In this document: piece by piece, positions 22,843 through 56,650 of the stretch
Layout of the letters: every line of letters starts with the position of its first letter
Position numbering within the stretch: position 1 is the first letter of the stretch
Source: an uncultured Bacilli bacterium
Lineage (GTDB): Bacteria > Bacillota_I > Bacilli_A > RF39 > UBA660
DNA: 64,000 bases
Assembly: GCA_944350445.1 (NCBI GenBank)
Contig: CALVOW010000005.1
Span: 997 to 64,996 of the forward strand
Direction of reading: 5' to 3'
Made by a program: the position numbers and the translations under genes
The notes under the pieces: generated by a model
Told to the model about the DNA's origin: nothing
Databases searched by the model: none
What the model saw: the letters and a program-made list of their open reading frames with translations, nothing else

Positions 22843-23096
22843 TAATAAAAGCAACATTAAACTAGATGTTAATTCAAATAATAATAATATTATATATAAT
22901 ATTTTGATATTTATACGCCCAAAATTATTTTCAATTCAACTTCATATAATATATATTATGTTAACTTCTGTAATTGGTATATTTAAACCTTATTACCCTA
23001 CTTTTCCTCCTTTCGTCACAGAACAGTTTAAGGTACCTATCCGGGCGTATATGCTATCAGTACACTACTTTATAGGTAGTGTATAATAAAAGCACT
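22843..23096 (-). ncRNA. Unclassified structured element, copy A (homologous to 24676-24893)
   Basis: Read on the minus strand, directly after the stop of ORF 23097-23327. Hairpin acactac-N7-gtagtgt (23062-23082) is followed by actgat. A long-range pairing joins tatacgccc with gggcgtata (about 22912-22920). It shares 16-mer and 10-mer blocks with copy B, and its core is locally GC-enriched. Confidence 0.4.
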
Positions 23097-23327
23097 CTAT
23101 TTTTGAGCACTATTTTTACAGATGTTAATAATTTCTAACAATTCTTTTTCACAACCTTCTGCTTGTTTATAAACAACCTTAAAATCATTAGGATTTTTTA
23201 GATTTTCTATATTGTTATAATTAGTTTTTAACAAACATATTAACCCATTCATTTTTTTTAAATCATTTTTATATTCTTTTCTAATATAACTATCTACTTC
23301 TTCTAATAAATGATATTGTTTATTCAT
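23097..23327 (-). CDS. Small phage-derived ORF (76 aa), candidate immunity-type protein
   Basis: Its ATG overlaps the TGA of the upstream gene fragment (ATGA). The position is equivalent to ORF 24894-25091 in the large insert. No family recognised. Confidence 0.4.
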   Translation of the reverse strand: MNKQYHLLEEVDSYIRKEYKNDLKKMNGLICLLKTNYNNIENLKNPNDFKVVYKQAEGCEKELLEIINICKNSAQK

Positions 23328-23506
23328 TTGGCTTTTTCACCCTCTTTAACTAAAATTATACCACGATTTAATATAATATACATATCATTCTGCTTAACAA
23401 CATCATAATTTGATAATATTGTTGTTGCACTTTCATTTGAATTCATATAATCAAGAATTGTTGTCACTTTATCGCCGTATTTATTATAATATTCTTCCAG
23501 ATTATT
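23324..23506 (-). pseudogene. 3'-terminal 60 codons of a foreign (phage-like) gene, truncated exactly at the last CRISPR repeat
   Basis: The minus-strand frame is open from the repeat boundary: NNLEEYYNKYGDKVTTILDYMNSNESATTILSNYDVVKQNDMYIILNRGIILVKEGEKAK*. It has no start codon of its own. Confidence 0.5.
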
Positions 23507-23507
23507 G

Positions 23508-24436
23508 GTTTTAATACCATTTAAAATGTCATAGAACTAAAACTTATACTCTACATTATCAGTATAAATCTCTGTTTTAATACCATTTAAAATGTCATAG
23601 AACTAAAACTCAATTGTCGACAGTTTGGAGGTGATAAACGTTTTAATACCATTTAAAATGTCATAGAACTAAAACCGAAATTAATAATATCAAAAAAACC
23701 AGTGGTATATCGGAAACAAGTCCGAATCGACCTACTGGTTTTTCTGAAAATAATATACCACAATCTAGCAATAATGTCAAATCGGATACATCTACTAAGT
23801 ATTCTATGCAAGAAATTCAAGATAATACACTGTTAAATAATTCTAAATCAAACCAACAACCACAAAATTCCACAAAGTCTAAACATACTGATTATATAAA
23901 TAGTGAAGTAAATTATTTAGCTGATCAAATAGATAACATAAATAATAATGATAAAGTGACATTTGAAGATATAGATGAAATTGTTTACAATTCTCCATAT
24001 TATAAGTTTTAATACCATTTAAAATGTCATAGAACTAAAACTATTAATTTCCTCCTTTTAAATCATAAATGGTTTTAATACCATTTAAAATGTCATAGAA
24101 CTAAAACCTGGTAGCCATTTTCAACTTTTACTATTTGTTTTAATACCATTTAAAATGTCATAGAACTAAAACACTATTAAAGATCCATTTTATAATCAAA
24201 CAGTTTTAATACCATTTAAAATGTCATAGAACTAAAACAACTAAAATGTCATTTCCAATGAAGTTATAGTTTTAATACCATTTAAAATGTCATAGAACTA
24301 AAACATAATCTAAAATGGACTATTGACATATAACGTTTTAATACCATTTAAAATGTCATAGAACTAAAACAAATTATTATAATAACCAAGAACACTTTCT
24401 GTTTTAATACCATTTAAAATGTCATAGAACTAAAAC
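23508..24436 (-). CRISPR. CRISPR array, leader-distal segment: 10 identical 36-bp repeats
   Basis: Repeats start at 23508, 23574, 23640, 24006, 24072, 24137, 24203, 24269, 24335 and 24401. The repeat in transcription sense is GTTTTAGTTCTATGACATTTTAAATGGTATTAAAAC. Spacers are 29-30 nt, except for one 330-nt segment. Confidence 0.95.
23676..24005 (+). other. Oversized (330-nt) inter-repeat segment: internal fragment of a foreign coding sequence
   Basis: Bounded by perfect repeats (23640-23675 and 24006-24041). One plus-strand frame is open across the whole segment (EINNIKKTSGISETSPNRPTGFSENNIPQSSNNVKSD..NYLADQIDNINNNDKVTFEDIDEIVYNSPYYK). Confidence 0.8.
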
Positions 24437-24611
24437 TTAAATCCTCTTTACTTGGTAAGTTTCTAGTCTTTCTAGCTACTTCTTTTTTTAAAGCTTCATT
24501 AAATTCTTCTTGAGTAGCGAAAGCTTTTTCCACTTTTTCTTCTGTAGTCTGTGTTTCTACATTTTCAGTTACTTTTTCTTCTGTAACATTTTGAACATTT
24601 TCTTGTTCCAT
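24437..24611 (-). pseudogene. 5' fragment of a phage scaffold-like gene, truncated by a CRISPR repeat
   Basis: RBS gaagggag is followed by ATG 24611. The acidic N-terminus MEQENVQNVTEEKVTENVETQTTEEKVEKAFATQEEFNEALKKEVARKTR resembles Firmicute phage scaffold proteins. The last residues of the tracked ORF are encoded by the repeat. Confidence 0.5.
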
Positions 24612-24675
24612 AAATTCTCCCTTCTTTTAAGTCATTAAGTTGGACTTAACCATTCTTTATTGTCTTTATGTTGGA

Positions 24676-24893
24676 CATAATAAAAGAACGTATTTCTACG
24701 TCCTGAAGTGCGTTTATAAGCACTGTACTGACGATAGAATGCCGTTTATTCCCACTTACCCTACTCTGTGTTATCAGCTGGTTCACATTTTGCCTTATCT
24801 AGTGGGTTTAGTTGAATAGAATACGTCTATTCCTGTGCCTCGCGTCATCAGTACACTACTTATAAATATAAAGTAGCGCATAATAAAAGAGCA
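24676..24893 (-). ncRNA. Unclassified structured element, copy B (between the small ORF and the scaffold gene)
   Basis: Minus strand. The ORF terminator (aagagca..tgctctt + ttattat) comes first, then hairpin gcgctactt-N9-aagtagtgt (24853-24879). A closing helix joins gtactga..cg with cgtcagtac. Internal hairpins are gaataga/tctattc, cccact/agtggg and agtgc/gcact. A GAAA-capped terminator ggacgta-gaaa-tacgttc + ttttattat closes it, then the RBS of the scaffold gene about 60 nt later. Confidence 0.45.
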
Positions 24894-25091
24894 TTATTTT
24901 GCTCTTAATTTCATTTCTTTTATATCTTTAATATAAATATTATAATTACCTACATATATTGAAGAATCATCTTCATCTTCGTCAAAAAAAATACCAGTTA
25001 TTTTTTCTCCACTATTTAAAATCACTTCAACTTCTTTTTGAAAGCAATTTAAATACCTTTGTGCAAATTCTTTATTTGTCATTATCATCAC
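24894..25091 (-). CDS. Small phage ORF (65 aa) downstream of the MuF-type gene; candidate immunity protein
   Basis: Overlaps the MuF-like stop by 20 nt. Acidic 65-aa product MMIMTNKEFAQRYLNCFQKEVEVILNSGEKITGIFFDEDEDDSSIYVGNYNIYIKDIKEMKLRAK. The assignment rests on position only. Confidence 0.4.
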   Translation of the reverse strand: MMIMTNKEFAQRYLNCFQKEVEVILNSGEKITGIFFDEDEDDSSIYVGNYNIYIKDIKEMKLRAK

Positions 25092-25899
25092 CTCTTATGT
25101 TTTTAAACTGTGCATTGTTGCTTGCTGGCACAATATGAACACCATTTTTTTCAGAATAATGAATTACAAATGAATTAGTTTCTTCTTCAACATTATAATT
25201 TTTATTAATATAAACTCCAATCACTTTATTTGTACTACATATTTCTTTATTTTGAATATTGCCTTTTATAGTTAATGGTGTGTATCCCTTTGTTGCATAT
25301 TCATTTACCAGTTTTTGTTCTTCTTTTATATCAATATTGAAATAACTCTTTCCTTGAATATATTTTTCACTATTTATATTGTGTTTCAGTTGCTTATCTT
25401 CATTTATCTTTATCAAATTTGGATTTTCTTTAATTTTATTATTTCGTAAAAGCAATTGTTTATATCCATTTAATGCTACTTCATCTGTAACATTATTATA
25501 CACCTTTTTTGCTTCTTTTAGCAAGTTTTCTTTTTTTTCTTTTTTATTTTTCCAATTTTGATAAGTTTTAGTACTTTTTTCTTTAACTTTAGGACTTAAC
25601 TCAGTGCTGCCAATCCATTCATTAGCAGTAATTCTAGTTCTACCAGTCTTATCTAAGAAACTTAAATATTCTTTTTTAGTGTTACTTAAACTATTTTGTT
25701 TTATTTTTATATAAGTAGGCTCTGCTCCGGTTTGTTTAAGCATTGCTATTTCTCTTTTTTTGTTGCGAATAGCTCTTTCGTATTGACGTTGTCTTTGTTT
25801 TTCTACATAAGCCTCATCATTTTCTTTTTTTGTAAAGTCCATTTCTCTTTTTTTTGATAAACCAGGAACAAACATATATCTTGAATGACCACAATTAAT
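25072..25899 (-). pseudogene. Exon 2 of a phage MuF/SPP1-gp7-type minor capsid gene with a C-terminal toxin-like extension (exon 1 absent)
   Basis: Starts INCGHSRYMFVPGLS (NC(R/G)H motif at the end of the MuF domain). YVEKQRQRQYERAIRNKKRE is typical of Firmicute minor capsid proteins. The tail ..NSFVIHYSEKNGVHIVPA is like MuF-fused nuclease/toxin modules. The tracked Met at 25902 is an artefact of the intron end. Confidence 0.6.
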
Positions 25900-26199
25900 C
25901 ATTTCTTGTTAGCTTATATTTCTATAAGTGTCGGACTATATCTTCCTCTAATAGAGGCATCGCATTTCAAATAACGTATCAATAGTTATCTTACATGGCT
26001 AAACTCATCACCATTAGTCTCTACACCTTTTTATAAATATTTCCACACATAACCATAAGCTGTTTTTCGATAAGTATGTCCTTTCAAAACCTTTACTATA
26101 ATGGAACTTGCGTTTAAAGATTTTGTCATGTTGTTTTTTATTAACCATCTTTCGGCTTCTCTAATTCCATTAAATTCCATTACTAATTTATTGTTTTTA
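25900..26199 (-). mobile_element. 3' portion of a group I intron (subgroup IA-like) carrying a homing endonuclease remnant, truncated by a CRISPR repeat
   Basis: Minus strand. P7 5' strand ggtgtagagac, then two hairpins (atgg..ccat and ataac..gttat, P7.1/P7.2-like). P8 is cctct-atta-gagg, with J8/7-like aagatatagtc and P7 3' strand cgacac. P9 is cttata-gaaa-tataag, with terminal G at 25900. The boundary is independently confirmed by spacer 27028-27057. Confidence 0.75.
26031..26198 (-). pseudogene. C-terminal 55 codons of an intron-encoded homing endonuclease (NUMOD/HTH-type DNA-binding tail)
   Basis: The frame is open from the repeat boundary: KNNKLVMEFNGIREAERWLIKNNMTKSLNASSIIVKVLKGHTYRKTAYGYVWKYL*. 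The pattern ..EA...L......I..VL.G...TA.GY.W.Y is the usual C-terminus of phage GIY-YIG/HNH homing endonucleases. Confidence 0.55.
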
Positions 26200-28215
26200 G
26201 TTTTAATACCATTTAAAATGTCATAGAACTAAAACATTTCTTTTTTGCTTTTTCCATTTTTATTTGTTTTAATACCATTTAAAATGTCATAGAACTAAAA
26301 CGCATTTGCAACTACTGATTTGTTTTCTGCAGTTTTAATACCATTTAAAATGTCATAGAACTAAAACTTTACTCTACCTACAACACCATTTCTAGCAGTT
26401 TTAATACCATTTAAAATGTCATAGAACTAAAACTACACAATAACACAATAACGCCAAAAGCAAGTTTTAATACCATTTAAAATGTCATAGAACTAAAACC
26501 ATAAGTTGTAATATCTATAAATTCATCTGGTTTTAATACCATTTAAAATGTCATAGAACTAAAACATTTCTTTTTTGCTTTTTCCATTTTTATTTGTTTT
26601 AATACCATTTAAAATGTCATAGAACTAAAACGCATTTGCAACTACTGATTTGTTTTCTGCAGTTTTAATACCATTTAAAATGTCATAGAACTAAAACACT
26701 GACTTATGCTATACTATATTTGTAATTGTTTTAATACCATTTAAAATGTCATAGAACTAAAACCGACAACTTTAATCTTCCAAAACTTCAATTGTTTTAA
26801 TACCATTTAAAATGTCATAGAACTAAAACTAACACCTATGTATTGATAAAACATTTCAGGTTTTAATACCATTTAAAATGTCATAGAACTAAAACCTACG
26901 ACGCGGTTGGCTTCTCGCTTGAGGAGTTTTAATACCATTTAAAATGTCATAGAACTAAAACCTAGTAAATGTTTAACCCCCTTGATATCTTGTTTTAATA
27001 CCATTTAAAATGTCATAGAACTAAAACGAATATTTGGTATTAATTGTGGTCATTCAAGTTTTAATACCATTTAAAATGTCATAGAACTAAAACACATCTA
27101 CATAACTAAACCCTTGTGGCGTAGTTTTAATACCATTTAAAATGTCATAGAACTAAAACCATTGCACTTATTTTATGACTAATATAGGAGTTTTAATACC
27201 ATTTAAAATGTCATAGAACTAAAACATAATTACATTTTCTAATTTCGATAGGTAAGTTTTAATACCATTTAAAATGTCATAGAACTAAAACAGAATATGA
27301 ATTTTACGAAATCAATTATATGTTTTAATACCATTTAAAATGTCATAGAACTAAAACAGGTGTTAAGACTGCTACAGAGGTAGTATCGTTTTAATACCAT
27401 TTAAAATGTCATAGAACTAAAACAGTGTAATGATGTATGAAAAATTACCTTTTGTTTTAATACCATTTAAAATGTCATAGAACTAAAACATTAATATAAG
27501 CGTCACTATTCCAAGAACAGTTTTAATACCATTTAAAATGTCATAGAACTAAAACTAAGTAGCTTTTAATGAAGATTTAACTTCTGTTTTAATACCATTT
27601 AAAATGTCATAGAACTAAAACTGATTAGCTATTGTTCCTAATGGCGGAGGTGTTTTAATACCATTTAAAATGTCATAGAACTAAAACATCATACATGATC
27701 ACATATTCATCGGGATGGTTTTAATACCATTTAAAATGTCATAGAACTAAAACTATTAGACAATTATATTGTCTCACATATTAGTTTTAATACCATTTAA
27801 AATGTCATAGAACTAAAACAAACATACTTAATTCTTTCTATAACCTTTTGTTTTAATACCATTTAAAATGTCATAGAACTAAAACATATCAATCATTTTA
27901 CTACTATCTTCGGGTGTTTTAATACCATTTAAAATGTCATAGAACTAAAACAATAGAATTGGAGTTTATTGTGTCAATGCAGTTTTAATACCATTTAAAA
28001 TGTCATAGAACTAAAACTCTTTGTTTACTAGCTTATATGTAATTCCGGTTTTAATACCATTTAAAATGTCATAGAACTAAAACGCGACTACTAATCAATC
28101 GACGACTACTAATGTTTTAATACCATTTAAAATGTCATAGAACTAAAACTTATAATCTCTAATTTGAAGCGAATAGCTCGTTTTAATACCATTTAAAATG
28201 TCATAGAACTAAAAC
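26200..28215 (-). CRISPR. CRISPR array, leader-proximal segment: 31 identical 36-bp repeats and 30 spacers of exactly 30 nt
   Basis: Repeats start at 26200 + 66k for k = 0..30. The sequence is the same as in segment 1. It is transcribed from the leader at 28216-28296 toward lower coordinates. Confidence 0.97.
26530..26661 (-). repeat. Duplicated repeat-spacer-repeat-spacer block (identical to 26200-26331)
   Basis: Spacers atttcttttttgctttttccatttttattt and gcatttgcaactactgatttgttttctgca each occur twice (26236/26566 and 26302/26632). Confidence 0.9.
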
Positions 28216-28296
28216 CTCAAATGGTTTTAATTCTAAAAGATCCATAGAAAATCAGTTATTTTAAATGATATTTATTTCTACAACATTCTATAATTA
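28216..28296 (-). promoter_or_regulatory. CRISPR leader (between the csn2 stop and the first repeat)
   Basis: 81-nt AT-rich segment. In transcription sense it ends ..ccATTTGAG directly before repeat 1. It contains a degenerate repeat-like copy at 28224-28256. Confidence 0.7.
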
Positions 28297-28974
28297 TTAT
28301 AACACAAATTCTTCTAATTCATTATCAATAATTAATTTATTTTCATAATTAAGTTTTACTCCATAGCTTTGACTATCAATTAAAATTATTGTTATATTAT
28401 TATAAATAGCATATTTATATAATTCTTCTAATTCTTCTTTCGATAATAACTGTTTTAAGTTTACCAAAAACAAAATTTCATTTGTTTTTAAAACAGACTC
28501 TAAGTCAATTAACAAAAGTAAATTATCAAGTAAATCATTTTTATCATTTATAGATACTTTAAATAATTTAATAATATCATCAATTATTAAATCTTCGTTT
28601 AAAATTAATGGAAGATCAATATTTTTTAATATATTAGCTACACTTTTATACATTTTTTTATAAATATTAAATATTTGTTGTTTGTCTATGTCGCTTAAAT
28701 TATTAATTATTTTTTTATTTAAAGAATTAAGATTTTTTTTAGAATTTAAATCAAGATCAAAAAAATTAATATATATTTCAATTTTTGATTGAAGATTTAT
28801 TTCTTCATTTTGATTATCATAAAAATATAGTTCATTTGTATAATCACCATTTTTTATAAGATATAAATCACTAATAAATTTATAAAACATTTTCTTGTTT
28901 TCAATTTCAACAACTTGAATATTACTATCATTTAAAAAAATATTATTATTAAAATAATTCACTCGTAAATTCAT
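28297..28974 (-). CDS. csn2: CRISPR-associated protein Csn2 (type II-A signature)
   Basis: 225 aa, the last gene of the cas operon, directly followed by leader and array. Size and N-terminus (MNLRVNYFNNNIFLNDSNIQVVEIENKKMFYKF) are typical of canonical Csn2. Confidence 0.85.
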   Translation of the reverse strand: MNLRVNYFNNNIFLNDSNIQVVEIENKKMFYKFISDLYLIKNGDYTNELYFYDNQNEEINLQSKIEIYINFFDLDLNSKKNLNSLNKKIINNLSDIDKQQIFNIYKKMYKSVANILKNIDLPLILNEDLIIDDIIKLFKVSINDKNDLLDNLLLLIDLESVLKTNEILFLVNLKQLLSKEELEELYKYAIYNNITIILIDSQSYGVKLNYENKLIIDNELEEFVL

Positions 28975-29291
28975 AAAACAACCAACCTATCTTCACTATT
29001 AATTATTTTGGTATTTTCACAACCGGAAATAAATTCAATTTTTGAATATTGTTTTTCCGTTATCGTTAAAACTTGAATAATCCCTTTTTTAGGAGCTTTT
29101 TTTCTAATTCTTTCAATTAATAATTTAGATTGTTCACTGTTTAAAACTATTTTAGAATAAACAGATTCTTGCATCATTAAAAAGCCTTCATTTATTAAAA
29201 ATTTTCTAAACATTATATAATTTTTTCGATCTTTTAAATAAACGTTTGGTAAATCAAAGAAAACAATTGTTCGCACTACTCTATCCCTCAT
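28971..29291 (-). CDS. cas2: CRISPR-associated endoribonuclease Cas2
   Basis: About 106 aa starting MRDRVVRTIVFFDLP (Cas2 beta1 with conserved Asp). The tracked ORF extends to 29321, but ATG 29291 abuts the cas1 stop. Confidence 0.85.
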   Translation of the reverse strand: MRDRVVRTIVFFDLPNVYLKDRKNYIMFRKFLINEGFLMMQESVYSKIVLNSEQSKLLIERIRKKAPKKGIIQVLTITEKQYSKIEFISGCENTKIINSEDRLVVL

Positions 29292-30150
29292 AAATAAAAT
29301 CCTTATATTCTTTATTTTCACTTAAAACCTTAAAAGTATTTTTCACATAAAGTTCAATAATATCTTTTAAAGTATATTTTTTTGAATTAAAAGTATAAAT
29401 ATTATTAAAAATATTAATTATATCAAGTTTTAAATTACTATCTAATTCTCTCTCTTGATTATAATAAACAAAAGCATCAATTATAACTCGAAATGGTTCC
29501 ATTAAATCACAAGCCAAATTAAAAGGGTTAAATTCATTTTTATGGTGAATTCCTAATTGTGTTAAATACCCATTGTTAGTTATTTCTTTACTAATTGTTG
29601 ATAATAAAATAGCATAGCCATAATTTAATTTAGCATTTATGATGTCGTTATTACCTCTTGAAAATTTTTTTCCAAATAAGGCATTAAAATAAACCTTAGA
29701 AGCATGTCCTTCGCGATTACTTTTATCCCCTACTCCCACTTCATCAACATAACTAAAAACAAGATTTGCTTGTTTACTTTTAATTTTTTTTAGTAAAAAA
29801 GCTTGATTTATAATTTTATTTTTAACAATTAAAGTCCATAAATTATCTTTATTTTTTAATGTCCATTTTGTTTGTTCAATGATTTTTTTACTGGAATTAT
29901 GCCGAGAATAAAATGGCTGTATTTGACCATAAGGATTATGTTTTTCATCGCAAAAAATAATATTAATTTTGTTATCAGTTAATTCTTTCAATAAATAAGA
30001 AGAAATAGATACAGATATAGAATCAACTATAATTGTATCTATTTCTGATAAGTGAATATATTTTTCTTCAATATCTTTTTTAACGACTAAAAATCTATTC
30101 TTGTAACTTATTTTGGCTTGATTAGCGATGACAACTGTTCTAAAACTCAT
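29281..30150 (-). CDS. cas1: CRISPR-associated endonuclease Cas1 (type II)
   Basis: 289 aa, overlapping the cas9 stop. Typical type II Cas1 N-terminus (SFRTVVI..AKISYKNRFLVVKK) and a conserved C-terminal helical domain (GIHHKNEFNPFNLACDLMEPFR). Confidence 0.9.
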   Translation of the reverse strand: MSFRTVVIANQAKISYKNRFLVVKKDIEEKYIHLSEIDTIIVDSISVSISSYLLKELTDNKINIIFCDEKHNPYGQIQPFYSRHNSSKKIIEQTKWTLKNKDNLWTLIVKNKIINQAFLLKKIKSKQANLVFSYVDEVGVGDKSNREGHASKVYFNALFGKKFSRGNNDIINAKLNYGYAILLSTISKEITNNGYLTQLGIHHKNEFNPFNLACDLMEPFRVIIDAFVYYNQERELDSNLKLDIINIFNNIYTFNSKKYTLKDIIELYVKNTFKVLSENKEYKDFIYEG

Positions 30151-33100
30151 ATCGACTCTCTTTAAGACCAGCAGGAGATTTAAATATTAAAGTTCCAGAC
30201 TTAATATTTATCCCATTTTGTCGTCCTATTCGACTACTCATTTTTTTATCATGAAGTTTTATTTTATCTAAATTTGCATTAGTTGAATTACATTTTAACA
30301 TTTTAAATATTTCTTGTATAACTTCTACTTTCGAAATACTTGTTTTATCATCATTGTTTATTTGCAAATTAAGATTTTGAAATTTATTTAATGATTTAAG
30401 TAATTTAAATTTTTCTAATTCATTACTATATAATGGATAAGAAAGTTCAATTTTATCTAATATTAAATCATATAATTCAATTATTTGTTTATCAAAAATT
30501 TCTAACCAATATTTTTTACCTTCGAAATTATTTTTATAACTTGGAATTCTTTGATTAAAAATAAAATTCAATAAATTTTTATATTTAATTTGTTCTTCTT
30601 TAGTTAACTTAAATTCAATATTATTAATAACTTCAGCAGATTTAGTACCACAACCAGTTATACAACATTTTTGATTTTTATATATTATTTCAATATTAAA
30701 AGGTATTCTATCTTTTTCTATAATATAATTATCACAGTTTAACTCTTTTATAATATAATTATTAATTTCTTCTTTTAAATTTTTCTTTTTAGTTAAAATA
30801 ACTGGTATTCCTATTAATGCTTTTTCTTCTTTATTCTTTTTTTGATACTTAACTAATATCATATATGAATATTGACAAGATGTATAACCACCATATATTT
30901 TAGGATCTAAGTTTTCTTTGATATTTATTAAAGATTTATTAGAAGTTGCTTTATAAATAGTTTCTTTATAAAATGCACCAGTATTAATAAAAGTTTTTTT
31001 ACTTATTAAAATATCATTTCGATATAAAGTATTGGCAATTTTTTCAATAAATTCCTTGGTATTAAATAATACTTCTCCAGTTTTTTCATCAATTTTTAAA
31101 TAATTTTCATCAATACTATTAATAACATAACCATATTTTAATTCATTATAACGTTTTTCAGTAAGTAATTTTTTAACTAATTCAAAAAATTCTGATTTAT
31201 TTAAAGTTCTTTTTAAATATTTTGTTTGATAAATTCCCAAAGTAATTGCTAAATAAGCATCATGAGCATGATGGTAATCATTTAAATTACGATATTTATA
31301 CAATTTAAATCTTTGACGGTAATTACTAGAAATATTGGCTTTTAAATAAATTACATTGGTATTTTTATATAAGCTTTTTAAAATATTAGCTACATGTTTA
31401 GTAATTTGTCTAGTTTCAACTAATTGACGATTGATAAATCCTTCAATATCTTTGTCGGTAAAATCAGTACGCATTAAATTGTTGTACTTCTTAGAAGACA
31501 TTAATTCTATTTCTTTTAAATGTTTCCACCAACCACTTTGTTTTTGAAATTCCCTTGGTAAAACTAGGTTATCACGTTTAATTTGATTTTCTTCTTTTAA
31601 TACCAAGGCTTTATTATCAATAGAATCATCTTTAATTAAAGTTTGAGGTAAGATATGATCAACTTCATATTTATCTGTATATAAGTCTTCAAAAATAATA
31701 GATGTACCAGAATATAAACTTTTACCTTCTTGTAAGAAGTATAAAAATAATTTTTCTTTATCAATTTTTTCAACATTTTTAAGTTTATCTTTTAATTCTT
31801 GATAATTTTTAATTTCGGTTTTATTTTGGTCATATATATTTAATAGTCTTTTTTTCCGATCATCTTTTCTAACTTTCTTTTCATCACTTCTTGACATTTC
31901 TATACTAATATTCTTTGGTTCGTATCCCATATAATCAATTATTTCTTGAACTACTTTTAAAGCTTGATAAATTCCTCGTTTAGTAGCAGGGGAAGTAGCC
32001 AAATCACTAACTAAGGAGTAATCTAATTTCGTAATTTCTTCTTGATTATTTTCTTCTTGAATAAATTTTTGAAAATTATATTGTGGATTATTGATAATTT
32101 GCATGAAATTTTCTTTGGTTTCCCACATTAAATCCATTATTGATTTAAAAGTATTACTTTCTTCATCATAATAGTATTTTGTTTCTAACAATTTTCTTGA
32201 TAAATTACTCCATCCTTTATAATTTTTAGTTAAAATAGTATTCATTTTTGGTAATAAATTAGGATATAATTCTGTAATTTCTTCTTTTAATATTTCTTTA
32301 TCTTCTAAAACAGTTATTAATTCTATAATTTTTTCAGCGTCATCTATTGTTAAATTTGTATCTTTAAAAATACCATTATCACCAAAAAAATCTATATAAG
32401 AATCCATATTATTAGCAAATTTTAAATCAGATGAATAACCATCAATTCTAATATCAGCACTATCTAAATCAATATACATTGATATTTCATTGGTTGTTCT
32501 TAAATAATTTTGAAATTTTTTATCGGTTAAACTACCTTTATTTTTTAAGAAAAATTCTTTATATATTTTATGTTGAAATGCTAAATCTATTTCTTTATCA
32601 TTTATTTTAATTTGCTTTAATTCATTTAAAACTTTAAATTTTGAATATAAAAGAGAATTATTAGGAATAGCATATTCATCTAATAAATAACTAGATTTAC
32701 CTATCATTCTATAAATAAAATTTTTAGCTGATTTTCGAATATCAACAACTTCTTCAAAATTATAAGGCGTTATTTTTCCTTTACTTTTTCTTACCATCCA
32801 AGCAAAAGGATGATTTTCATTTGCAACTAAAGGTCCAACATAATAAGGAATTCGAAATTTTAAAAGTTTAACAATTTTATATTCGCCTTTTACTTTTTCT
32901 AACAAAAAATGATAATATTGTCCTTGATTTTCAAGAATAATTTTTAGTTCGGCTAGATTTAATTGATAAGGAAATTTACCATTTTGGGTATCAGCTATTC
33001 TTGGCAAGAAAGAACTATTTTCCATACTATCTAATATCTTTTTAATTTGTTCTTGATTTTCCTTAGTAGTTATTTGTTCCAAAACTTTTTTTAATTCATT

Positions 33101-34267
33101 AGTAAATTCGGTATAAGTTAATTGATTTCTTATATATTTAGTATAAACAGATAATTCTTCTTTATTATCTTTAATTTTATCTTTAAATAGTCTTCTAAAA
33201 TTACTTTGATAAGGACGAATTAAATCTTTAATAAGGTGTAAATCCTTCTTTTGTTTATTATAATTAGCAACCATTAAATTAGAAATACTAGCACTATCTT
33301 GATTTTTAAAAAGTTGTTTTAAAGAAATCATATCATATAACTCTTTAAAAGCATTAATTACTTCAAATTCTTCTGGTAATTCACTTTGTAATTTATCTAT
33401 TTCCTTATCTATATTTATATCTGTAAAATCTATCTTTTTAACATTTTCGATATTTTTAGCAAATAAATTTTCTAAATTAGCATTACTGCCAGCTAATAAA
33501 GATGCTATTTCTTTACTAACTTTATTGTGAAATTGCGTTGTTAATTCTTTTATAATTGCTTTCTTTTTATCATTTTTATTTTGAATATAAAAGGCATTTT
33601 CTAATTCTTTTAGATTAATATTATCAATACTTGGTTCTTGATTATAAATATCTGTACATATTTCAAAAATTGTATTTAAAACTTCTTCTAATTTTTCTCG
33701 AACATTGATTTTTTCGATATTAAATTCGTCCATATTATAATTAAAATTACCACGATATTTAATAATATGATGAATTGCTAAGTAAATAAGGCGAAGATCC
33801 TCTTTTTCTTTATTAATAATTAATTTTTTTCTTAAATGATAAATAGTTGGATATTTATTATCTACGCAACTAATCATTCTTTTATTTTGATAAATTACTT
33901 CTCTTTTTAAATTACTAAAAATTTCTTTTTTATCGTAATTAGTTAAAGGTATTTTTTTATTTTTAATATCATCAGGACTAATATTACTTGTTTTTAATTT
34001 TTGAAAAAAAGTAGGATCAACTTTATTTATTTCTTCTCTAAACTCATCTTGTAACAATCTAATTCTCTCCCGTCTTCTGTCATATCTTCTCCTTGTACTT
34101 CGAAAATTTCTTCTATCAACAGCTGTTGTTGCCATGTCAAATAATCTAACTCCCCATAAAGATTTTTGTTTATTACCTTTTTTAATTATGTTAAAATTAT
34201 CATCAATAACAGCATAACCTACTGATGCTGTTCCAATATCAAGTCCAATATTATAATCTTTTTGCAT
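30140..34267 (-). CDS. cas9: CRISPR-associated endonuclease Cas9 (type II-A, SpCas9-sized)
   Basis: 1375 aa. RuvC-I IGLDIGTASVGYAV, an Arg-rich bridge helix RRNFRSTRRRYDRRRERIRLL, HNH YEVDHILPQ..DNKALV, and RuvC-III NDYHHAHDAYL. Confidence 0.97.
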   Translation of the reverse strand: MQKDYNIGLDIGTASVGYAVIDDNFNIIKKGNKQKSLWGVRLFDMATTAVDRRNFRSTRRRYDRRRERIRLLQDEFREEINKVDPTFFQKLKTSNISPDDIKNKKIPLTNYDKKEIFSNLKREVIYQNKRMISCVDNKYPTIYHLRKKLIINKEKEDLRLIYLAIHHIIKYRGNFNYNMDEFNIEKINVREKLEEVLNTIFEICTDIYNQEPSIDNINLKELENAFYIQNKNDKKKAIIKELTTQFHNKVSKEIASLLAGSNANLENLFAKNIENVKKIDFTDINIDKEIDKLQSELPEEFEVINAFKELYDMISLKQLFKNQDSASISNLMVANYNKQKKDLHLIKDLIRPYQSNFRRLFKDKIKDNKEELSVYTKYIRNQLTYTEFTNELKKVLEQITTKENQEQIKKILDSMENSSFLPRIADTQNGKFPYQLNLAELKIILENQGQYYHFLLEKVKGEYKIVKLLKFRIPYYVGPLVANENHPFAWMVRKSKGKITPYNFEEVVDIRKSAKNFIYRMIGKSSYLLDEYAIPNNSLLYSKFKVLNELKQIKINDKEIDLAFQHKIYKEFFLKNKGSLTDKKFQNYLRTTNEISMYIDLDSADIRIDGYSSDLKFANNMDSYIDFFGDNGIFKDTNLTIDDAEKIIELITVLEDKEILKEEITELYPNLLPKMNTILTKNYKGWSNLSRKLLETKYYYDEESNTFKSIMDLMWETKENFMQIINNPQYNFQKFIQEENNQEEITKLDYSLVSDLATSPATKRGIYQALKVVQEIIDYMGYEPKNISIEMSRSDEKKVRKDDRKKRLLNIYDQNKTEIKNYQELKDKLKNVEKIDKEKLFLYFLQEGKSLYSGTSIIFEDLYTDKYEVDHILPQTLIKDDSIDNKALVLKEENQIKRDNLVLPREFQKQSGWWKHLKEIELMSSKKYNNLMRTDFTDKDIEGFINRQLVETRQITKHVANILKSLYKNTNVIYLKANISSNYRQRFKLYKYRNLNDYHHAHDAYLAITLGIYQTKYLKRTLNKSEFFELVKKLLTEKRYNELKYGYVINSIDENYLKIDEKTGEVLFNTKEFIEKIANTLYRNDILISKKTFINTGAFYKETIYKATSNKSLINIKENLDPKIYGGYTSCQYSYMILVKYQKKNKEEKALIGIPVILTKKKNLKEEINNYIIKELNCDNYIIEKDRIPFNIEIIYKNQKCCITGCGTKSAEVINNIEFKLTKEEQIKYKNLLNFIFNQRIPSYKNNFEGKKYWLEIFDKQIIELYDLILDKIELSYPLYSNELEKFKLLKSLNKFQNLNLQINNDDKTSISKVEVIQEIFKMLKCNSTNANLDKIKLHDKKMSSRIGRQNGINIKSGTLIFKSPAGLKESRYEF

Positions 34268-34300: not shown

Positions 34301-34392
34301 GTAGTCTTAATACCATTTAAGATGTCATAGAGAGTTAAAATAAAGGTTTACCCTAAACATTAACTTATGAAACTGGTTAGCCAGTTTTTTTT
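34301..34392 (+). ncRNA. tracrRNA
   Basis: Divergent from cas9. The anti-repeat cttaataccatttaagatgtcatagag matches the plus-strand repeat apart from two substitutions. A nexus-like agttaaaataaagg follows, then the terminator hairpin actgg-ttag-ccagt and T8. A tataat -10 box lies at 34282-34287. Confidence 0.8.
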
Positions 34393-55620: not shown

Positions 55621-56423
55621 GTGAAAGGCTCGTCTGTCTGCCCCTCACAGAACCCATCGTGCCCTATTAAGGCAATAGGCTCTTCATATAAATCTTTTGA
55701 TTTAACCTATATTAACTTTAATTCGTGGAATAGGCATTGAAAATCTTGCCCATATTCTATTAAATATTTCATATGTCATACTTTTCTTTTGATGTCTTCT
55801 ATTTAGTATTCTATATGTACTCCATTTAACATATATATAATTGAAGTTTCTTATACTTTATAGATTGACTTCTTATATCTCCTCTTTCTTTTTCCATTTC
55901 TTTTTACCTCCATGTGTAATTAATGTTTCTATTAGAGAAACGATTTATATGCTAGTCCCTTCGCTCCAGAGTCATTACTTCCTTCACCACTACTATGAAC
56001 TAGTCCGACTACTTATAAGTCTTTTACCTAACTTAGTTTTCAATACCTTGCTTTGGTATACCCCTTACTATTGGCAATTTTAAACCTTTTAGACTTGAGG
56101 AACTTATAAGTTCTCCCAGGTATGCTTAATATACCTTGTGAACTCGCCGAGTTCTTAGACCCCGATGGAATTTATAATATCTCGCATTAACGATATTACA
56201 AATGTTGCTTGCTGTAGAAAGGAGTACATAAGCTTCCATATTTATTGTTTTAATAACGAGGCTCAATCACTTCACGCTTTCGCATTTCGGCTCGAACACT
56301 TTCTTGTCTACGCTTAAACCTAATCTCACGACTTTGGCTCCAAGACTAGATACTGGCTCTTTGCTAGAGATTACCAGATTAGGAGTTTCACCCAATTATA
56401 TATTAAGCACCAAACTGGCGCAC
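55621..56423 (-). mobile_element. ORF-less group II intron (Ll.LtrB/IIA-like by motif resemblance) in the valS 5' leader
   Basis: The minus strand starts GTGCGCCAGTTTGGTGCTTAA. Domain I strings are GGGTGAAACTCC and GCCGAAATGCGAAAGCGTGAAG. A J2/3-D3-like CATAGTAGTGGTGAAGGAAGTAATG is present. The D4 RBS GGAGGTAAAAAGAAATG is followed by only a 23-codon ORF. Domain V is GAGCCTATTGCCTTAATAGGGCACGATGGGTTC (55650-55682). D6 ends ..GCCTTTCAC at 55621. Confidence 0.75.
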
Positions 56424-56427
56424 CCTT

Positions 56428-56650
56428 CAAAAATAAAAAAAGACCAAGTCCAAAGGACGAAGTCTTCGTGGTACCACCTTATTTTGTAATAAAATTACCT
56501 TAAAATCTTAATGCGATTAACATTATATCTTACTAAACTCAGATATAATTCTCCAAAGCTACCTTCTGTTAGATTCTTTATTAGTTTCCACCAACCACTA
56601 ACTCTCTGAAAAGTTATCTAACATACTCCTCTTCTTCAACGAATTTAGTT
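56428..56650 (-). promoter_or_regulatory. T-box riboswitch leader, probable Val specifier (GUA), for valS
   Basis: Minus strand. Stem I motifs are cagagagt .. ggttggtggaaac. The specifier context gaagGTAgcttt parallels the Ala leader. T-box sequence aaggtggtaccacg (56468-56481). Terminator gacttcgtcc-tttg-ggacttggtc followed by tttttttattttt (56428-56441). Confidence 0.75.

Follow-up and report, generated by a model that had tools for sequence, protein, structure and literature searches.

A 330-nt slice of a phage polyvalent-protein gene as an ancient over-length spacer in a type II-A CRISPR array of an uncultured Bacilli bacterium

CRISPR arrays are read as lists of memories of about 30 nt, and most pipelines discard longer inter-repeat stretches as errors. 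In canonical type II-A acquisition, Cas9, Csn2, Cas1 and Cas2 take up 30-bp prespacers chosen by NGG. Longer phage DNA in arrays has one documented route, the spacer-protospacer recombination that Varble et al. (2019, Nat Microbiol) reportedly described for phages and CRISPR loci. Integration of a prophage into type II-A repeats, with spacer loss and transfer on excision, is documented for PhiAP1.1 of S. pyogenes, whose insertion can disturb transcription of downstream spacers (10.1101/2020.10.09.333658). As for the integrase itself, S. pyogenes Cas1-Cas2 yields mostly one-ended integrations in vitro, and the authors propose maturation by repair (PMC8390005). On the phage side, polyvalent proteins have a mosaic make-up; they are packaged, and a metallopeptidase built into them cuts them into units (Iyer et al. 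2017, PMC5512222).

Here we describe an array in which one spacer position is filled by a 330-nt gene fragment. The array lies in a 64,000-nt stretch (the window) of contig CALVOW010000005.1, assembly GCA_944350445.1, from an uncultured Bacilli bacterium (RF39; UBA660) whose draft genome has 1.34 Mb, 26% G+C and 46 contigs. Its 36-nt repeat occurs in 41 identical copies, with 0 expected by chance, and repeats of this type are present in ten of 201 genomes of the family. The locus is of type II-A and is transcribed on the minus strand, with the leader near 28216-28296 and the oldest spacers near the trailer end at 23508. Between the repeats are 40 stretches: 38 of 29-30 nt, one of 1763 nt and one of 330 nt. 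Coordinates are given in Table 1.

Table 1. Features of the CRISPR locus and of the 330-nt segment, in window coordinates.
Feature	Position	Strand	Basis
Type II-A CRISPR array	23508-28215	-	41 identical 36-nt repeats; repeat/spacer listing and NGG 3' of minus-strand-read spacers
Perfect repeat, trailer side of the segment	23640-23675	-	36-nt repeat listing
330-nt over-length spacer, frame from 23677	23676-24005	+ (coding strand)	Open frame, homologues, junctions and population
Putative 20-nt crRNA guide of the unit, at the spacer end next to the downstream repeat	23676-23695	-	Inferred from type II-A crRNA maturation
Conserved cassette: post-LPD3 tail (EINNIKKTSGISETSPNRPTGFS) and inter-domain linker (..NNIPQS..NVKSD.STKYSMQE)	23677-23830	+	Protein and DNA homologues
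Strong hairpin between A-run and T-run, terminator-like on both strands, inside the conserved cassette	23690-23747		Folding energies and z-scores
Promoter-like site: TTGACA, 17 nt, TG-extended TATATT	23752-23780	- (crRNA direction)	11/12 positions, consensus match only
Start of a further module (..SEVNYLADQIDNINNNDKVTFEDIDEIVYNSPYYK)	23831-24005	+	No relative in searches
Perfect repeat, leader side of the segment	24006-24041	-	36-nt repeat listing
csn2	28297-28974	-	Pfam Cas_Csn2, above curated cut-off
cas2	28971-29321	-	Pfam CRISPR_Cas2, above curated cut-off
cas1	29281-30150	-	Pfam Cas_Cas1, above curated cut-off
cas9 (1375 aa)	30140-34267	-	Pfam Cas9_REC/PI/RuvC/HNH/BH, above curated cut-offs

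Some further features of the window were recorded. A diverged copy of the repeat, with 8 mismatches, lies directly upstream of cas9 (34304-34339) and is likely the tracrRNA anti-repeat. Inside the array, a block of 168 nt is duplicated: spacers 11 and 12 recur as spacers 16 and 17 (26236-26331 and 26566-26661). Finally, Rfam finds a group II intron domain at 56150-56388 (minus strand), directly downstream of a T-box leader at 56450-56648 (minus strand).

The segment occupies a spacer position of the array next to cas9-cas1-cas2-csn2, and its length lies outside the roughly 30 nt of a spacer. With canonical type II-A acquisition it shares the single spacer position, the perfect duplicated repeats, the active array, the phage origin and the inheritance as a unit. 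It differs in being 330 nt long instead of 30, in having no NGG at either testable position, and in probably having no working guide. Given this length and the absence of NGG, both the ruler and PAM selection would have been bypassed.

The initial annotation described an oversized piece of coding sequence between perfect repeats, and this holds. The two bordering repeats are among the 41 identical copies, and the length contrasts with the 29-30 nt of 38 of the 40 spacers. As had been claimed, a frame on the plus strand is free of stops throughout, within a stop-to-stop ORF of 121 codons (23647-24012); it runs directly into the leader-side repeat (..YYK-F-stop). The other five frames of the segment contain 2-16 stops under table 4, and table 11 brings extra stops only. 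The argument that so long a frame is improbable by chance is borne out as well, with any fully open frame appearing in only 20 of 20,000 dinucleotide-preserving shuffles. The frame is also antisense to crRNA transcription, as stated: the four cas genes adjoin position 28215 on the minus strand, and NGG follows the minus-strand-read spacers in their targets.

The segment was further said to be unrelated to the 1763-nt insert, and we find no similarity between the two, so the array has taken up long DNA at least twice. The two are neighbours 400 nt apart, separated by six normal spacers. In the 1.34-Mb draft genome we found neither a second copy of the segment nor a protein relative.

In a draft of 46 contigs, where repeats invite misjoins, a collapsed or chimeric assembly has to be considered, and the initial annotation named it as a possible refutation. 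The junction comparison was confined to runs whose word share was not small. Contigs built at k=31 from three independent chicken-gut metagenome runs, belonging to three studies, cover 23649-24034, 23647-24034 and 23640-24035 with 0 differences. Each contains the whole segment and extends 27-36 nt into the left repeat and 29-30 nt into the right one. In a run from a fourth study, the contig spans 23648-23999 and bridges only the left junction. Furthermore, the identical 330-nt sequence is found between perfect repeats in ten longer assemblies, and the segment is unchanged in more than a dozen assemblies made with different assemblers. With junctions seen in four studies (both of them in three) and in all these assemblies, an artefact is refuted and has next to no probability left.

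Two apparent exceptions were dismissed. Contig joints that seem to skip the segment (23677 to 24001 in run X7, 23676 to 26197 in run X6) looked like an insert-free allele; they are ordinary 30-nt spacers of other strains aligned on the repeats. In L048, an apparent spacer of 119 nt consists of Ns that fill a scaffold gap.

The segment also recurs across strains. A 68-aa ORF called inside it (P0010) is recorded in 41 blocks of the collection, for which 22 contigs were read. Around the segment the arrays vary: in one, an additional old spacer stands between spacers 1 and 2; spacer 1, spacer 2 or spacers 5-8 are missing from others; and in one variant the segment directly adjoins an insert of the 1763-nt type. 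Several segment-bearing arrays have quite different leader-side spacers. More array variants were retrieved by means of the 76-aa gene beyond the trailer. Two arrays, L044 and L047, have younger spacers in common with the insert-bearing arrays, and the block holding both long inserts is lost from them. Such losses of neighbouring units are as expected for repeat-repeat deletion.

In all variants read the sequence of the segment is identical, except for one variant ORF with a single residue change. Since the exact segment is found in arrays with differing leader-side spacers, it is old, is inherited like any repeat-spacer unit, and was in place before these strains diverged. The array has since gained at least 37 normal spacers.

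As for the origin of the segment, its first half is homologous, at the protein and the DNA level, to large phage polyvalent proteins. This makes it a slice of a real gene, as the initial annotation proposed, and the comparison with phage proteins suggested there identifies the donor family as an LPD3 polyvalent-protein gene. In large protein collections, proteins of 844 to 2218 aa match segment residues 1-50 to 1-80 with 55-78% identity and E-values of 7e-14 to 4e-7. The cassette is 66-78% identical in amino acids to P0001-P0009 and P0011, and the first ~50 codons (~155 nt) show 82-85% DNA identity to loci L010-L014. Conservation of the frame in homologues, which the claim depended on, thus holds over its first half.

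The polyvalent-protein relatives have 1,745-2,218 aa. P0003 has its LPD3 domain (PF18798) up to residue 572 and matches the segment from residue 575 on; with 2 residues between, the segment starts directly after that domain. LPD3 itself is not in the segment: the 110 aa give no Pfam match, nor any in PHROGs. The linker that closes the cassette recurs between modules of such polyvalent proteins. The two loci that were read, those of P0004 and P0009, are prophage structural modules in which the gene is flanked by lysis genes (lysin) and, on the opposite side, by those for terminase, capsid and head. Their host flanks are only 68-73% identical to this genome; their hosts are therefore relatives of other species.

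The segment thus resembles the phage-type LPD3 polyvalent proteins (PMC5512222) in its post-LPD3 tail and linker, in its 1,745-2,218-aa homologues in prophage structural modules and in mosaic domain order. It differs from them in being only a fragment, in lacking the LPD3 domain itself and in having a second module without relatives. It is a genuine and ancient over-length spacer, an internal piece of a large phage polyvalent-protein gene.

The second half comprises the first ~60 codons of the next module, following the post-LPD3 cassette. For this half, tblastn and blastn against GenBank phages gave chance AT-rich matches only, and no relative was found by tblastn against plasmids, in IMG/VR, in GTDB genome contigs and JGI metagenome contigs, or in region-restricted protein searches. 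In a HMMER scan of 1.8 billion representatives, the sole match was P0010, which is the ORF called within this array. Among 60 relatives and 400 genomes of the family, matches were to the first half or the linker only; the weaker genome matches G189:C9 and G144:C16, considered as further cases, are not inside arrays. In run X5, one other contig shares the second half up to 23955 and then diverges in frame. The mosaicism of polyvalent proteins would explain a second half without relatives. The donor of the segment itself was not found in GenBank phages, plasmids, IMG/VR, GTDB or JGI contigs.

We now turn to the route of entry. One possibility is spacer-protospacer recombination, by which two ordinary spacers, derived from one strand of a single phage gene at a distance of 270 nt, would have recombined with the phage so that the phage DNA between them replaced the intervening repeat or repeats. 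This also gives long phage DNA flanked by repeats, would also yield exact repeat borders, and the array heavily targets related phages. The prediction is that nucleotides 31-33 of the insert are the PAM of the leader-side spacer, and that a donor PAM stands just beyond the trailer-side end. The PAM is NGG, as found in 12 of the 17 protospacers of minus-strand-read spacers (on the resident prophage of contig C2 and on a phage contig).

The expectation of a PAM after the terminal 30-mers was not borne out for the segment. Positions +31-33 read TCT, with ATC and CTA at offsets -1 and +1, and turning TCT into NGG would need two changes, one of them non-synonymous. At the trailer side the flank was taken from relatives only 82-87% identical and not from the donor: before the homologous start, L010 and L012 read ..CATTTTTAT, which in crRNA sense is TAA, as imposed by a Tyr codon kept in all five homologues. 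A missing PAM is no absolute proof, since five of the 17 protospacers, in imperfect targets, are also without NGG.

The spacer record may also speak against recombination. Not one of 108 spacers from the array variants matches the segment relatives L010 or L012, and the two putative parent spacers occur in no variant array. The terminal 30-mers of the segment were likewise absent as separate spacers from these 108, in a sample of about 20 array variants that covers the younger lineages. With both testable ends failing, we regard recombination as an unlikely origin of the segment.

The neighbouring insert behaves differently. The 1763-nt insert has TGG at +31-33 and, at the outer test position beyond its trailer-side end, AGG in a related phage contig that runs on past 24437, and spacer-protospacer recombination is its likely mechanism. 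The phage DNA beyond the last repeat (the trailer flank) likewise has CGG at the first test position. The same array therefore holds two pieces with NGG after their leader-side 30-mers, which is a point in favour of recombination for the segment too. The PAM test nevertheless separates the segment mechanistically from the 1763-nt insert.

Two variants of the end test were tried and rejected. Uptake of the segment in flipped orientation does not fit at the testable positions: TAT follows the first plus-strand 30-mer, and the last minus-strand 30-mer is preceded by ATA, not CCN. An origin of the ends in Cas9 cutting does not fit either, there being no GG 3 nt from either end on either strand.

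Some observations concern the phages around this array. Beyond the last perfect repeat, 23062-23506 is 97.5% identical over 445 nt to phage contig L045:3822-4266, so the array trailer seems to be replaced by phage DNA. On L045 the identical 76-aa protein is encoded between a 221-aa gene and a scaffold gene. Spacer 23 (27028-27057) matches the 1763-nt insert with its first 19 nt only (25881-25899), and the C2 prophage with all 30 nt and 4 mismatches. Exactly where this match ends, the phage of the 1763-nt insert carries extra DNA, a homing-endonuclease remnant; the uninterrupted form was seen in run X6.

The resident prophage lies outside the window, at about 33-67 kb of contig C2, and is matched by many spacers. 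The spacers of this strain differ from it by single seed mismatches near the PAM (spacers 26 and 37) or in the PAM. Other strains have spacers with a perfect match and NGG, and should therefore be able to exclude this prophage.

The segment is homologous to the phage genes from base 1-2 of the spacer position onwards, and both flanking repeats are perfect. This exact start and the intact repeats fit integrase chemistry and not random breakage. Together with the lack of a PAM at the testable ends, the exact fit to a spacer position favours integration of a long unprocessed fragment by Cas1-Cas2.

We propose the following sequence of events. A long untrimmed phage fragment would have had its two 3' ends joined by Cas1-Cas2 with Csn2 to both borders of the repeat that was then leader-proximal. 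Two half-site reactions could account for this, or integration at one end with repair joining the other. Cas9/PAM selection and the 30-bp ruler would both have been inactive, and gap filling would then have duplicated the repeat. The S. pyogenes reaction offers a chemistry by which each 3' end can be joined to a repeat border independently; it was seen in vitro with 26-nt substrates, whereas the segment has hundreds of bases (PMC8390005). In the literature, we found no experiment or paper in which type II-A integrases insert fragments of hundreds of bases in vivo.

Against the integrase route, two other long pieces in the same array have ends like those of former spacers, and one common mechanism would be more economical. 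Taken as a whole, our best explanation is an ancient slice of a polyvalent gene, inserted by the adaptation integrase independently of PAM and ruler and probably without a role in interference. We hold it tentatively, at somewhat less than an even chance.

The borders of the segment also bear on a capture without Cas proteins, in which template switching or a few bases of homology would have joined the repeat ends to phage DNA, with one spacer replaced. In very AT-rich DNA short matches to repeat ends are frequent, and the frame continues into the repeat, so a donor could share bases with the repeat start. On the trailer side, however, only 1-2 bases are common to the repeat end and the flank of the relatives. 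For random joints, both borders would fall at repeat edges in about 1 in 4,000 cases, by the estimate (1/66)^2. Furthermore, we found no phage-borne copies of the repeat, or sequence like it, in the related phage loci or the genome, except for the tracrRNA anti-repeat. Such a capture seems to us rather improbable.

A remnant of a mobile element is more doubtful still. Here an element would have integrated site-specifically in a repeat, as PhiAP1.1 did, or a unit would have come from another array, and a deletion would have left 330 nt. The documented prophage integrations into type II-A repeats and the frequent repeat-repeat deletions of this array make it conceivable, and phage DNA bounded by repeats in a type II-A array is common to both cases. 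PhiAP1.1, however, is a whole prophage with an integrase and a repeat-mimicking att site (10.1101/2020.10.09.333658), whereas the segment is a 330-nt internal gene fragment without these. It is one uninterrupted internal piece of a structural-module gene, with no att-adjacent genes, integrase or internal deletion joint, and import from another array merely shifts the question. We consider this origin very unlikely.

A second long slice was found in a genome of another genus, G200. At L015:489-1391 (G200:C40), a 903-nt stretch lies between perfect type II-A repeats near the trailer and is followed by degenerate repeats. It is open over 300 codons in one frame of the transcribed strand and encodes the LPD3 domain in full, scoring 43 bits where the cut-off is 27. 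Its positions +31-33 are ATT, not NGG; NGG is the PAM of the window's array and may not be that of G200. No close donor of this slice was found. LPD3 was found in only 13 of 401 family genomes. That two genera each have a long slice from this rare gene region is suggestive, although two cases are too few to test.

No other short LPD3 frame proved to be an array slice. Those in L062 and L064 are small genes between repeated terminator-promoter units, and the one in L069 is beside a tandem array of 159-nt units that is not a CRISPR array. This last array deserves a description: at L069:306-1101 (G378:C13), five tandem units of ~159 nt stand beside a 282-aa LPD3 gene, each with a promoter-like box, a conserved ~70-nt stretch and a T-run, and Rfam has no matching family. 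The units may represent small RNA genes arrayed on a mobile element.

In terms of structure, the cassette holds a strong hairpin, at -24.3 kcal/mol sense and -27.8 antisense, with Z-scores of -5.8 and -6.3. It is kept in L010 (12416-12491), L012 (12290-12365) and L017 (1497-1596), and has no Rfam family. Between phages its inner stem is changed on both sides, from CGGA/UCCG to CAGG/CCUG, along with two amino acid changes (E to G, P to L). In the four distinct sequences compared, this two-sided change suggests selection on nucleic-acid structure within a coding region. In the crRNA direction the hairpin looks like an intrinsic terminator, with the promoter-like site just upstream.

The guide of a type II-A crRNA is the 20 nt adjoining the downstream repeat. 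The predicted guide of this unit matches the start of the conserved cassette, without NGG in the related phages, so that interference is unlikely. Judging from the sequence, the segment probably contributes nothing to interference at present.

One may ask if the insert is kept for some other function. It could yield an antisense RNA of 330 nt directed at the phage mRNA for the polyvalent protein; alternatively, a terminator and promoter within it could change how the oldest spacers are expressed. In line with this, the pre-crRNA contains the segment in antisense orientation, the strong hairpin has a U-run behind it in the crRNA direction and stands next to a site matching the promoter consensus at 11 of 12 positions, slices of the LPD3 region occur in two genera, and the segment is nearly invariant among strains. 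Its identity across strains is, however, also expected from recent common descent, the insert was lost in L044 and L047 without visible consequence, and the G200 slice is in sense orientation. A retained function is thus quite unlikely in our judgement.

A broader reading would be that type II-A adaptation occasionally archives gene-sized DNA without PAM or ruler, with the cassette (A-run, hairpin, T-run) as a preferred point of breakage or capture. The captured piece might then alter the expression of older spacers or act as an antisense RNA. Preferred capture at the hairpin cassette would explain why long slices of the LPD3 region are found in arrays of two genera. We put this forward as speculation with a rather low probability.

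New here are the assignment of the donor gene, the evidence from many strains that the unit is old and stable, and the failed PAM test. A 330-nt gene slice in this array is real, old and stably inherited. Its ends misfit the one documented route for long phage DNA, recombination at spacers, which fits the 1763-nt neighbour. This misfit suggests that another route exists, probably one in which an integrase reaction ran free of its length and PAM controls. If true, the insert length accepted by natural type II-A integrases might be far greater than assumed, a point of interest for DNA-recording tools, and CRISPR arrays could preserve fragments of extinct phage genes.
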